Assembly: GCA_963790805.1 (NCBI GenBank)
Contig: CAWBPL010000002.1
Span: forward strand, 704,696 to 768,695
DNA: 64,000 bases
Direction of reading: 5' to 3'
DNA from: Candidatus Gottesmanbacteria bacterium
GTDB lineage: Bacteria; Patescibacteriota; Microgenomatia; UBA10105; UBA927
The position numbers and the translations under genes are program-made. The notes beneath the pieces are model-generated. The model did no database searches and was not told where the DNA came from. It saw only the letters and a program-made list of their open reading frames with translations. Below are positions 13,376 to 16,006 of this stretch, in pieces; within the stretch, counting starts at the first letter, position 1, and every line of letters starts with the position of its first letter.

Positions 13376-16006
13376 GTGAGCAGTCTGCCTAACGATTATA
13401 CCAACTACCTAGCCTCGCAAGGGTTGAGCCGTGGTTCGATTAGAAACTACACGGCAGACATGTCTCGCTTCATGAAATGGTTCGAAACGACGACTGGTGA
13501 ATCATTTGCTCCTGAGAAGCTTCGAAGCTACCACATAGACCAATATCGTCAAAATCTGGAAAACGAACAGATTCCCGCATCCACCGCCCGTCGGTATATC
13601 GCAAGTTTAAAAACTTTTTTGAAATGGTTGGATCCTCATGGAAATATTTTTTCAATCAACGGTCCAACGCCACCCCCTACAGCGGTAAAAGCTTTTTCAT
13701 CGAATGAATCCTCTATAGATTTACTATCGGGTAACGAGGTATTAGCAGCGTATGCCGCATTTTTAGCAGCGCAGGGATTAAGTAAGAGTTCAGTACGAAA
13801 CTACATCGCCGATATGGTGCGTTTCGTCCGCTGGTTCGAGGCGTCAGAGTCTCTTAAGTTTTCTCCGGAGAAAATTCAATCCTATCACCTTGAACGGTAT
13901 CAAATGCACCTTCTGCGGGGAGGAGTGCCTGAGAGCACAATGAAGCGCTATATCGCGAGTCTTAAACAGTTTTTACGGTGGGTTCGTCCGCAGGTGCACC
14001 TGCAAGCGAAACCGCGACCGTTTGAGCTCACCCCTGCGCCGATATGGAAGGGAGTTCGTAAGCGTTTTGATCGTTTGCGCGGAGTAATTCCGCCGTTTCC
14101 AAGAAATTTTGTTAATCAGCTTGCGTTTCGTGCCGCAGTGATCGGCGTATTTTTTTTGATATCTATAGTAATAAACTTTGGGACTAACAGCGCGTCGCGA
14201 GCAATCGGCCTTATCCGAACAGTCAAGACGCATGTTGCTCAAAAAACGAACGAACCGGCCTTCGCTTTAGCCCAGCCAAAAGGTTCTGTGTTAGCCGGTG
14301 AGGTCGAGCGGGGGATTTTGGAAATTAACACCGGCGTCGGCATTTATGCCGAAGCTTCGGTTTCAGGACTTTTATCTGCATCAGGCGGTTTAACAACAAC
14401 ACAGGCGACTGTCTCACAAAGGCTCATTGTCGGCGCAGGCGGAGCATTTGTCGTTAACTCGGCAGGAAACATTGAATCGGCAACAGGCATCACCTCAAGC
14501 GGCGATATTACGTTTACCGGCCTTTCACCAGTGTCCGGCACCACGTATCAAAACGTCTGTATCGATGCAGACAATCGGCTCGTCACATGCGTTATCCCGA
14601 CGCCTCCGCCGACACCGACGCCATTTGCCACACCAACACCGCAGCCCACTGTAACGCCACTTCCGCCGTCGGTGCTGGGCGGCACAGGTTCAACAGGATT
14701 TACCGGTCCCACCGGTTCAACGGGTTCAACAGGTGCAACCGGCGAAATCGGTCCGACGGGTTCAACAGGGTCAACAGGAGAAATCGGACCAACCGGAAGC
14801 ACAGGTTCCACAGGGGCAACCGGAGATAATGGTCCAACGGGAAGTACGGGTTCCACGGGTGCAACGGGCGAAAATGGACCGACCGGAAGCACGGGTCCCA
14901 CTGGTGATTTGGGCCCGACCGGAAATACAGGAGCAACGGGCGAAATTGGTCCTACGGGAACTACTGGCTCTACCGGCTCAACAGGGGATAACGGTCCGAC
15001 AGGATCTACCGGTTCTACCGGTGCAACCGGTTCAACGGGTTCAACTGGTGCAACAGGTGAAAATGGCCCAACAGGTTCTACCGGTTCAACAGGCGCAACA
15101 GGCGATAATGGTCCTACTGGTTCTACCGGTTCAACCGGCGCAACAGGCGCAACAGGCATGACCGGAGGAACCGGTGTTACCGGTCCAACCGGTTCTACCG
15201 GCCCAACTGGCGAAACCGGTCCAACCGGTTCTACTGGTTCAACCGGCGCTTCTGGAGACAATGGCCCAACGGGTTCGACAGGTTCAACGGGTTCGACAGG
15301 TTCAACTGGTGCAACAGGTGAAGCAGGTCCGACCGGCGCAACCGGTGATTTTGGACCAACAGGCATGACCGGAGCAACGGGTATGACCGGTGCTACAGGG
15401 TCAACAGGAGACACCGGCCCAACGGGTTCTACCGGCGATTTTGGACCAACAGGATTTACCGGCGGAACAGGAGAACAGGGTGTAGGCGGACAACAGGGTC
15501 CGACAGGTTCAACCGGAGGAATTGGTCCAACAGGTGACACGGGAGCCACCGGTGCAACCGGTGAAAACGGTCCAACTGGAACTACAGGTGCTACTGGCCC
15601 AACCGGTGAAACCGGTCCTACAGGCGCTACTGGTTCAACGGGTGCTACCGGTCCAACCGGTTTTATTGGCCCAACCGGATCAACGGGTGCAACGGGTGGT
15701 ACAGGAGTGACAGGACCCACAGGTTCAACCGGTTCTACAGGTTCAACCGGTTCTACAGGTTCCACCGGCGGCACTGGCGTTACCGGTCCAACCGGTTCAA
15801 CCGGTGCTACGGGTCCAACGGGCGTTATTGGTCCAACAGGTACAACTGGTGCTACCGGCGGCACTGGTGTTACCGGTCCCACAGGTTCTACCGGTGCTAC
15901 CGGTCCAACCGGCGAAACCGGTCCAACAGGTTCTACTGGATCAACCGGTTCTACTGGCGAAAATGGTCCAACAGGGAGCACGGGTTCAACTGGATGCAAC
16001 CGGTGA
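13376..16006 (+). CDS. giant collagen-like protein, N-terminal segment (2x integrase-SAM-like domain, TM helix, PT linker, first ~440 triplets)
   Basis: 876-aa ORF. Two tandem segments match the phage-integrase N-terminal SAM-like/core-binding pattern ([27 protein letters not shown]...[14 protein letters not shown] and [27 protein letters not shown]...[14 protein letters not shown]). The TM helix is [17 protein letters not shown]. Collagen triplets run from 14678. Confidence 0.85.

Follow-up and report, generated by a model that had tools for sequence, protein, structure and literature searches.

A tandem of recombinase-type core-binding domains on the predicted cytoplasmic end of a giant collagen-like fibre protein from a Candidatus Gottesmanbacteria genome, and a conserved dyad in the leader of its gene

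Introduction

This work concerns a giant fibre gene that starts at position 13376 of a 64,000-nucleotide stretch of DNA (hereafter the window) from a Candidatus Gottesmanbacteria bacterium (assembly GCA_963790805.1, contig CAWBPL010000002.1). The protein begins with two core-binding (CB) domains of the SAM-like type found in tyrosine recombinases, has no recombinase catalytic domain, and continues through a predicted transmembrane (TM) helix into a collagen-like ectodomain of thousands of residues. The CB tandem is the constant cytoplasmic part of diverse giant surface proteins, which makes the finding more general than the single case described in an earlier, sequence-only reading of this DNA. 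In the collagen-type members, the leader of the gene carries a conserved 30-nucleotide (nt) dyad with the layout of a recombinase core site. We tentatively interpret the tandem as a non-catalytic, membrane-tethered DNA-binding foot, whose target might be the dyad in its own leader and whose role might be the regulation of its own gene; this is a real possibility that falls short of being probable. The coordinates of all features are collected in Table 1.

Results

Pfam identifies the first domain (CB1) as Phage_int_SAM_1 (PF02899; E 1.4e-19, best stretch amino acids (aa) 7-85) and the second (CB2) as Phage_int_SAM_4 (PF13495; E 2e-15, best stretch aa 128-203), both far above the gathering score, and finds no catalytic domain (PF00589) on the 876-aa open reading frame (ORF). 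The NCBIfam models of XerD, XerC and XerA match with their first ~80-100 positions only, at 58-71 bits against cut-offs of 220-335, the best models for the ORF being XerD (E 1e-19) and XerC (E 6e-18), again in the N-terminal part and below the cut-offs. Aligned without gaps over 81 aa, the two domains show 52% identity. An AlphaFold2 model of the tandem, built on a 32-sequence alignment, gives each of them four helices (4-14, 19-40, 51-63 and 68-85 in CB1; 120-132, 137-158, 169-181 and 186-203 in CB2), with predicted local distance difference test (pLDDT) values >90 over most of both bundles and <50 at aa 95-113 of the linker, which has ~35 aa and varies in length across the family alignment. 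The top PDB match found by Foldseek is the core-binding domain of XerA (5hxy; 85 aa, root-mean-square deviation 1.5 A, probability 1.0), followed by the core-binding domains of IntI (2a3v) and lambda Int (1z19); a search of the PDB with the single protein sequence gave no match. The sequence-only reading had placed tandem SAM-like domains without a catalytic domain at the start of the ORF 13376..16006. Its coordinates were correct, the profile search supports the SAM-like assignment and offers nothing to refute it, and both the tandem and the missing catalytic domain are borne out by Pfam, by the modelled bundles and by the fold matches.

When compared with the CB domain of P0266, a complete Xer-like recombinase, CB1 shows 38% identity and CB2 30%, and both have in common with it the motifs T-I/V-K/R-N-Y-x-x-D...F..W and R-x-x-S-L-K/R-x-F. 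Given the 38% identity, and the T-I-K-N-Y..D..F..W motif common to CB1 and the CB domain of P0266, the comparison points to a likely Xer-type origin of the tandem, with Xer-like recombinases as its nearest catalytically complete relatives. The positions that are invariant or nearly so in the family (N24, Y25, D28, R73 and F81, with the CB2 equivalents Y143, D146 and R191) map to the N-terminal ends of helices 2 and 4 in the AlphaFold2 model and family alignment, and in Cre and Xer structures it is helices 2 and 4 of the CB domain that enter the major groove. The Asn that precedes the conserved Tyr is invariant in the family and is present in P0266 too. Without a catalytic domain DNA recombination is impossible for the fibre protein, which is therefore no recombinase and ought not to carry that annotation; and when all six frames of the window were searched with the family profile, neither a second copy of the tandem nor an adjacent recombinase was found.

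A ribosome-binding role for the SAM-like domain was considered and dropped. It had been prompted by the best sequence match of the family profile in the PDB, 9i5v chain 14, labelled 'RaiA'; this chain is a 400-aa protein of Porphyromonas gingivalis of which 34 residues are modelled, at the hpf/tRNA-binding site (PMC12123416), and it was for this reason that the role was abandoned. With a Xer-like CB domain at its N-terminus, the chain looks like a fusion of a recombinase-like part with RaiA.

When the first 300 aa served as query in an exhaustive HMMER search, matches being counted as cluster representatives, 777 of them were returned at E<=1e-3. The fibre protein itself matches the family profile at aa 2-215 with 242 bits (E 2e-73). 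The tandem begins at residue 1-25 in 100 of the 103 two-domain matches, and the module is basic family-wide, with a mean net charge of +8.7 over 103 members. Among the best 150 relatives, 45 have a length of 1,000-6,041 aa and just 5 carry a recombinase catalytic domain (searched for with that of P0266). The sequence-only reading had suggested counting the fusion of the domains to a TM helix among relatives, and a TM-like segment follows the module in 54 of the 63 long members, at a median start residue of 296. A hydrophobic segment some 30-200 aa beyond the module, with a very large ectodomain after it, is a mark of the family that the fibre protein shares. These ectodomains vary: collagen in the closest relatives P0003, P0004 and P0026, PA14 in P0052, LamG in the protein of locus L005, and no Pfam domain in the remainder. 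Those sources that give a name, mostly metagenome-assembled genomes of Patescibacteria/Microgenomates, call such proteins 'site-specific integrase/XerC/XerD' or 'phage integrase N-terminal SAM-like domain-containing protein'. Apparently, this is a large uncharacterised family, mainly of Patescibacteria, with a constant CB tandem, a TM helix and a variable ectodomain of 1,000-6,000 aa, and the fibre protein is a member of it. We found no description of such an architecture in the full-text literature on SAM-like or core-binding domains with TM, giant, collagen or Candidate Phyla Radiation (CPR) proteins.

It could be argued that the tandem is inert, as a relic or artefact left when a broken integrase gene was joined to a surface-protein gene by chance or misassembly, since the collagen tract has many frame errors (see below) and relatives are often annotated 'site-specific integrase/XerD'. 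However, independent assemblies and metagenomes (L001-L004 and L013-L027) have this fusion too, as do dozens of clusters, formed at 50% identity, of proteins with 1,000-6,000 aa; both bundles are intact and confidently folded, and the catalytic domain is as rare among the top relatives as stated above. Conservation this broad effectively refutes the idea.

Just one hydrophobic stretch, aa 249-269, occurs among the first 420 aa; its Kyte-Doolittle value, taken over 19 aa, peaks at 2.25. Net charge falls from +8 in the 45 preceding aa to +3 in the 30 that follow, and the protein has no signal peptide at its N-terminus. This difference in charge, together with the lack of a signal peptide, argues for an N-in orientation and supports a predicted type II single-pass protein, N-in and C-out, with the CB tandem in the cytoplasm and the collagen outside. 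Both the helix and the orientation were derived from hydropathy and charge counts, and to this extent the reverse topology, with an extracellular tandem and an intracellular collagen tract, could be entertained. We give it hardly any credence: a folded helical domain of 248 aa would need to cross the membrane without a signal peptide, the charges run the other way, a tip domain follows the collagen tract, and bacterial collagen-like proteins are surface structures. The stalk between the TM helix and the collagen is common to the closest relatives P0003, P0004 and P0012.

Beyond the stalk, Pfam Collagen matches the ORF 13376-16006 with an E of 1e-58, in a Gly-X-Thr-rich repeat. The TM helix that the sequence-only reading had put after the SAM-like domains, the cytoplasmic and outer placement of the two ends, and the collagen-like character of the extracellular fibre have thus all held: hydropathy gives the helix, hydropathy and charge do not place the SAM-like domains outside the cell, the inferred topology agrees with the profile, fold and charge analyses, and the Pfam match confirms the collagen. 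What the sequence-only reading missed is that the end of the ORF at 16006 is probably a frameshift artefact. Gly-X-Y periodicity runs unbroken from 14678 to 30175 across all junctions, and 25 of the 28 frame changes in the tract fall between 16000 and 21250. The junctions are mostly net -1, and most of them look as if a two-base run in the repeat codons had lost one base (e.g., CCAACT -> CCACT). The frame-changing stretch is just somewhat more repetitive than the rest. The 28 frame changes are probably one-base consensus errors of long-read assembly in a repeat that is hard to polish. Read as assembly deletions, they leave a single ORF, 13376-31000, of ~5,874 aa and ~17.6 kb, which is probably the true fibre gene; the ORFs 13376-16006, 15994-18009, 20653-26010, 27309-30101 and others are likely to be pieces of it. 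To our knowledge, a collagen tract of ~5,166 residues is longer than the known bacterial examples by roughly an order of magnitude. The C-terminal tip has no LPXTG motif, and neither the tip nor the other non-collagen parts match Pfam outside the collagen and SAM-like domains.

The leader dyad has the consensus TGTAAYnnnTTG-N6-CAAnnnRTTACA (12+6+12) and occurs once in the 64-kb window, against 0.14 expected. It was followed in the window and in 17 orthologous loci with upstream DNA, obtained by scans of genome and metagenome collections, whose proteins are 38-68% identical. All 18 leaders have it, always exactly 30 nt long, with TGTAA, TTACA, G17 and C24 invariant, and with an information content of 1.46 bits per column compared to 0.57 and 0.34 in the flanks. 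In 17 of the 18 loci it lies 8-45 nt upstream of the start codon. A TATTAT-type -10 box stands 16-26 nt upstream of it in the orthologous loci, accompanied by TTGAC[AG] 17-18 nt further upstream or by an extended TGn, so placed that the dyad would start at roughly +10 to +20 of the inferred transcript start. In five loci an additional TGTAAY box stands just upstream of the dyad. Other than the dyad, the repeats in the 1.4-kb intergenic region ahead of the gene are just short AT-rich ones of a kind expected by chance. A 12+6+12 arrangement is the layout of tyrosine-recombinase core sites (dif is 11+6+11, loxP 13+8+13). The half-site may resemble the XerD arm of dif as well, a likeness that comes from a short AT-rich match and is to be treated as a lead only.

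RNA structure was rejected as the conserved feature of the dyad, given that it has no covariation support and folds weakly in two of six loci. Covariation is not significant: 85% of cells pair, compared to 83% in shuffled controls, which is why we conclude that the dyad is conserved by sequence and not by base-pairing. Sequence conservation without pairing, together with the extra TGTAAY boxes, is a pattern that fits recognition by a protein, and the presence of the dyad in all 18 orthologues favours sequence-specific nucleic-acid binding over generic anchoring to the nucleoid, which the sequence-only reading had put forward beside signalling and a repurposed protein-interaction domain as a potential role of the module. 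It is nevertheless conceivable that the module binds an RNA hairpin of its own leader, acting in translational autoregulation, in mRNA stabilisation or in membrane localisation of the 17.6-kb mRNA. The dyad lies inside the leader, at ~+10 to +45 from the inferred start, the leaders of four of the six loci fold stably (-9 to -17 kcal/mol, z-scores -2.6 to -5), and one fully compensatory change was seen. Against this, 7-8 of the 18 sequences fail to pair at the variable positions of the stem, covariation does not exceed that of the shuffled controls, the hairpin of the other two loci (L019 and L003) is no better than shuffles, the additional boxes lie outside the hairpin, and CB domains are not known to us to bind RNA. 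Altogether, we regard RNA binding as distinctly improbable.

If each bundle reads one arm, and both the same half-site, high similarity between CB1 and CB2 is expected in the clade that has the dyad. CB1-CB2 identity is 36-58% in this clade compared to a family median of 36%; the five scored relatives of the clade are all in the top 9 of 102, and the fibre protein is as high, with the 52% given above.

In more distant relatives, a large clade that is labelled Patescibacteria/Microgenomates by those sources that name it, the tandem is divided over two genes. A profile search found about a hundred clusters, mostly of 145-175 aa, nearly all of which end after helix 2 of CB2 with the sequence ...TIKNYLSDLRHFLxWLExx*. 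In every split locus fetched the next gene encodes a giant protein, of >820 to >4,400 aa, which in the four cases read has helices 3-4 of CB2 at its N-terminus, then a TM helix and then a 'LSFQGRLTD' ectodomain. The two genes are separated in one of three modes: a conserved ~105-nt spacer with a GCGGGNCC...GGTACCCGC hairpin and a T-run, a stop/start overlap of 11 nt, or a ~180-nt insert that carries a 60-codon ORF. The spacer gave nothing meaningful against Rfam. The simplest reading is that the two polypeptides rebuild the CB2 bundle in trans, recoding, splicing or an intervening sequence being the alternative. These variants show an ancient link between the CB module and giant proteins. The distant members share a TTGACA-N17-TATTAT/TATAAT promoter type, and the split clade has no dyad but three direct T(G/A)TAAT repeats, 9-10 nt apart, right after the -10 box, which could be binding boxes for the CB module. 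A conserved set of 3-5 genes (~240, 340, 491, 345 and 290 aa, without a Pfam match), as well as a small Big_1 protein in the opposite orientation, precede the split CB and giant genes; this block may be a dedicated accessory/export cluster for the giant protein.

The split relatives bear on another interpretation of the tandem, namely that it is a repurposed protein-protein foot that anchors, oligomerises or docks (for example, by setting the register of three fibre chains or by recruiting export or assembly factors), with no nucleic-acid role, the dyad serving an unrelated regulator. A CB2 that forms in trans would be a docking interface, the occurrence of the module on ectodomains as different as collagen, PA14, LamG and those without a known domain is what a generic foot would give, and in recombinase synapses CB domains also make protein-protein contacts. 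Such a foot does not account, however, for the retention of Xer-type motif residues and positive charge in both bundles, nor for the co-occurrence of the gene with a dyad resembling a core site in 18 of 18 orthologues, and the registration of collagen trimers is impossible for members without collagen. We hold this interpretation for possible, although doubtful.

As to the neighbouring genes, the M23 peptidase that follows the fibre has an N-terminus like a signal peptide, a Pro/Thr-rich linker and its peptidase domain at aa 456-542. Its gene is possibly co-transcribed with that of the fibre, and co-expression might make it a cell-wall-hydrolysing partner of the fibre, as would suit an episymbiotic lifestyle. 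An F-type ATP synthase operon (alpha, gamma, beta, epsilon) precedes the fibre gene in the window and in L001, L002 and L004. The gap between the two, unusually long at ~1.4 kb in the window (11951-13375) and also in L001, is AT-rich (GC 0.36) and has no convincing ORF and no Rfam match; in the whole window Rfam finds two tRNAs and nothing else. The ATP synthase beta subunit (9446-11149) is an unusual one of 567 aa, with Pro/Ala/Ser-rich extensions of low complexity at both ends (N-terminal ~40 aa, C-terminal ~80 aa). Further downstream, LepA (EF4; 37606-39882) has 758 aa, and many of its close relatives align in a single local segment that covers just 54-62% of its length, as a putative lineage-specific insertion of ~100-150 aa would explain. 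All named relatives of this LepA belong to Patescibacteria or Candidatus Gottesmanbacteria, which marks the organism as a CPR bacterium.

Table 1. Positions of the features of the fibre locus in the window and, in the last three rows, of the split loci
Feature	Position	Strand	Remarks
ATP synthase operon region	4496-11950		
Putative extended -10 element TGtTATTAT	13300..13308	+	TATTAT at 13303-13308; consensus match alone
30-nt dyad	13326..13355	+	conserved in orthologous leaders; ends 20 nt before GTG
Dyad left arm TGTAACGTCTTG	13326-13337	+	
Dyad centre AATTAT	13338-13343	+	
Dyad right arm CAAGCTGTTACA	13344-13355	+	
ORF	13376..16006	+	GTG start, 876 aa
GTG start codon	13376..13378	+	position backed by alignment of the window with L001; a V codon opens most orthologous matches
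CB1, first CB (SAM-like) four-helix bundle, aa 4-85	13385..13630	+	Pfam, AlphaFold2, fold match
Pro/Ser-rich disordered linker between CB1 and CB2, aa 86-119	13631..13732	+	pLDDT, family alignment
CB2, second CB four-helix bundle, aa 120-203	13733..13984	+	Pfam, AlphaFold2, identity to CB1
Basic juxtamembrane segment, aa 204-248	13985..14119	+	net charge +8; low pLDDT in modelled part
Single TM helix, aa 249-269, predicted signal anchor	14120..14182	+	hydropathy
Non-collagen ectodomain stalk, aa 270-434	14183..14677	+	Pro/Thr-rich linker at end; without significant Pfam match
Collagen-like Gly-X-Y tract, ~5,166 residues	14678..30175	+	29 segments, 28 frame changes
C-terminal non-collagen globular tip (~270 aa) and TAG stop	30176..31000	+	no Pfam match
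Secreted M23 peptidase, 1,343 aa	31010..35041	+	10 nt after fibre stop; Pfam Peptidase_M23 E 5e-27
Split CB2, ~155-175-aa ORF then giant ORF	L005 8001-8700; L007 8001-8680; L010 6001-6560; L012 6001-6700; L028; L030		
Accessory block of split clade	L005 1-7240; L007 1-7210; L010 1-5480; L012 1447-5421; L028 382-4305		
T(G/A)TAAT repeats after promoter	L010 5960-6000; L030 30-70; L005 7840-7880; L007 7855-7895		

Discussion

Were the tandem bundles to work together as an intramolecular 'dimer' with sequence-specific affinity for nucleic acid, their likeliest target would be the 30-bp dyad in their own leader, just downstream of the promoter. Binding at this place would repress or pace, by feedback, the transcription of a costly gene of 17.6 kb. 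As the N-terminus is the part that is made first, the protein could also act in cis whilst still being translated, and such co-translational binding would tie the locus to the membrane export site during export of the fibre.

Several points weigh against such a DNA-binding foot. The dyad could be bound by another regulator, or act as a hairpin of the 5'-leader RNA, and the promoter and transcription start that place it were read from consensus matches alone. In addition, the exact dyad is restricted to the collagen-type clade, distant family members being without it, and the TATAAT-like repeats of the distant clade could be merely -10-like (pause) elements. On the side of the protein, isolated recombinase CB domains are generally weak DNA binders without the catalytic domain, the conserved Tyr, Asp and Arg residues may be structural instead of contacting DNA, and CB2 can serve as a protein docking interface, as follows from its division between two proteins in the split clade.

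A more ambitious version of the DNA-binding reading takes the duplicated, catalysis-free Xer CB domain to be a single-chain 'dimer' reading a dif-like 12+6+12 site. The giant surface proteins of Patescibacteria would then form a novel class of autoregulators, tethered to the membrane, acting in cis and possibly during translation, and each linking its giant gene physically to the site of export at the membrane. For the split clade, this version has the DNA-binding unit captured or released as the N-terminus of the giant protein complements the bundle in trans. We consider this version, taken as a whole, fairly unlikely.

The prevailing view is that CPR/Patescibacteria live attached to other cells, and few parts of their small genomes are understood less well than the giant surface proteins. 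A recombinase-derived cytoplasmic module common to a large set of these proteins provides a handle for naming, detecting and experimenting on the family, whose mislabelling as 'site-specific integrase/XerD' is routine and inflates the counts of mobile elements in CPR genomes. If the module does bind the dyad, this would be a clear exaptation of the DNA-recognition domain of a recombinase into a transcription or tethering factor, and a simple way to limit and localise the expression of a 17.6-kb gene. Even to a specialist, the DNA-binding domain of a recombinase on the cytoplasmic end of giant fibres, with a candidate operator resembling a core site upstream, would come as a surprise.

Compared to known systems, each bundle of the fibre protein has the CB fold and sequence motifs in common with Xer-type recombinases (XerC, XerD, XerA), and the dyad of the fibre gene, as a candidate site, resembles their arm-centre-arm core site. 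Unlike these enzymes, the fibre protein has no catalytic domain (R-K-H-R-H/W-Y), its CB domain is duplicated, and beyond it lie a TM helix and thousands of ectodomain residues. The split relatives, named 'site-specific integrase', have the same N-terminal CB tandem in a soluble protein of ~155-175 aa; in the fibre gene of the window the module is fused and intact, whereas theirs has CB2 divided over two genes. In layout, the fibre protein is like the ToxR, CadC and TcpP regulators, with a cytoplasmic N-terminus of DNA-binding type, a single predicted TM helix and an extracytoplasmic C-terminus, a likeness that extends to the candidate operator in the promoter region of its own gene. In contrast to ToxR and CadC, Pfam and fold searches find CB bundles in place of an OmpR-type winged helix, and the outside part is a structural fibre of ~5,600 aa, not a small sensor domain. 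Finally, Gly-X-Y repeats and a globular end are what the fibre has in common with the collagen-like proteins Scl1/Scl2 of Streptococcus, BclA of Bacillus and those of Pasteuria; but where Scl and BclA are concerned, the fibre protein differs in lacking a cleavable signal peptide, LPXTG or exosporium targeting, and in being anchored by an N-terminal signal anchor together with a cytoplasmic module.

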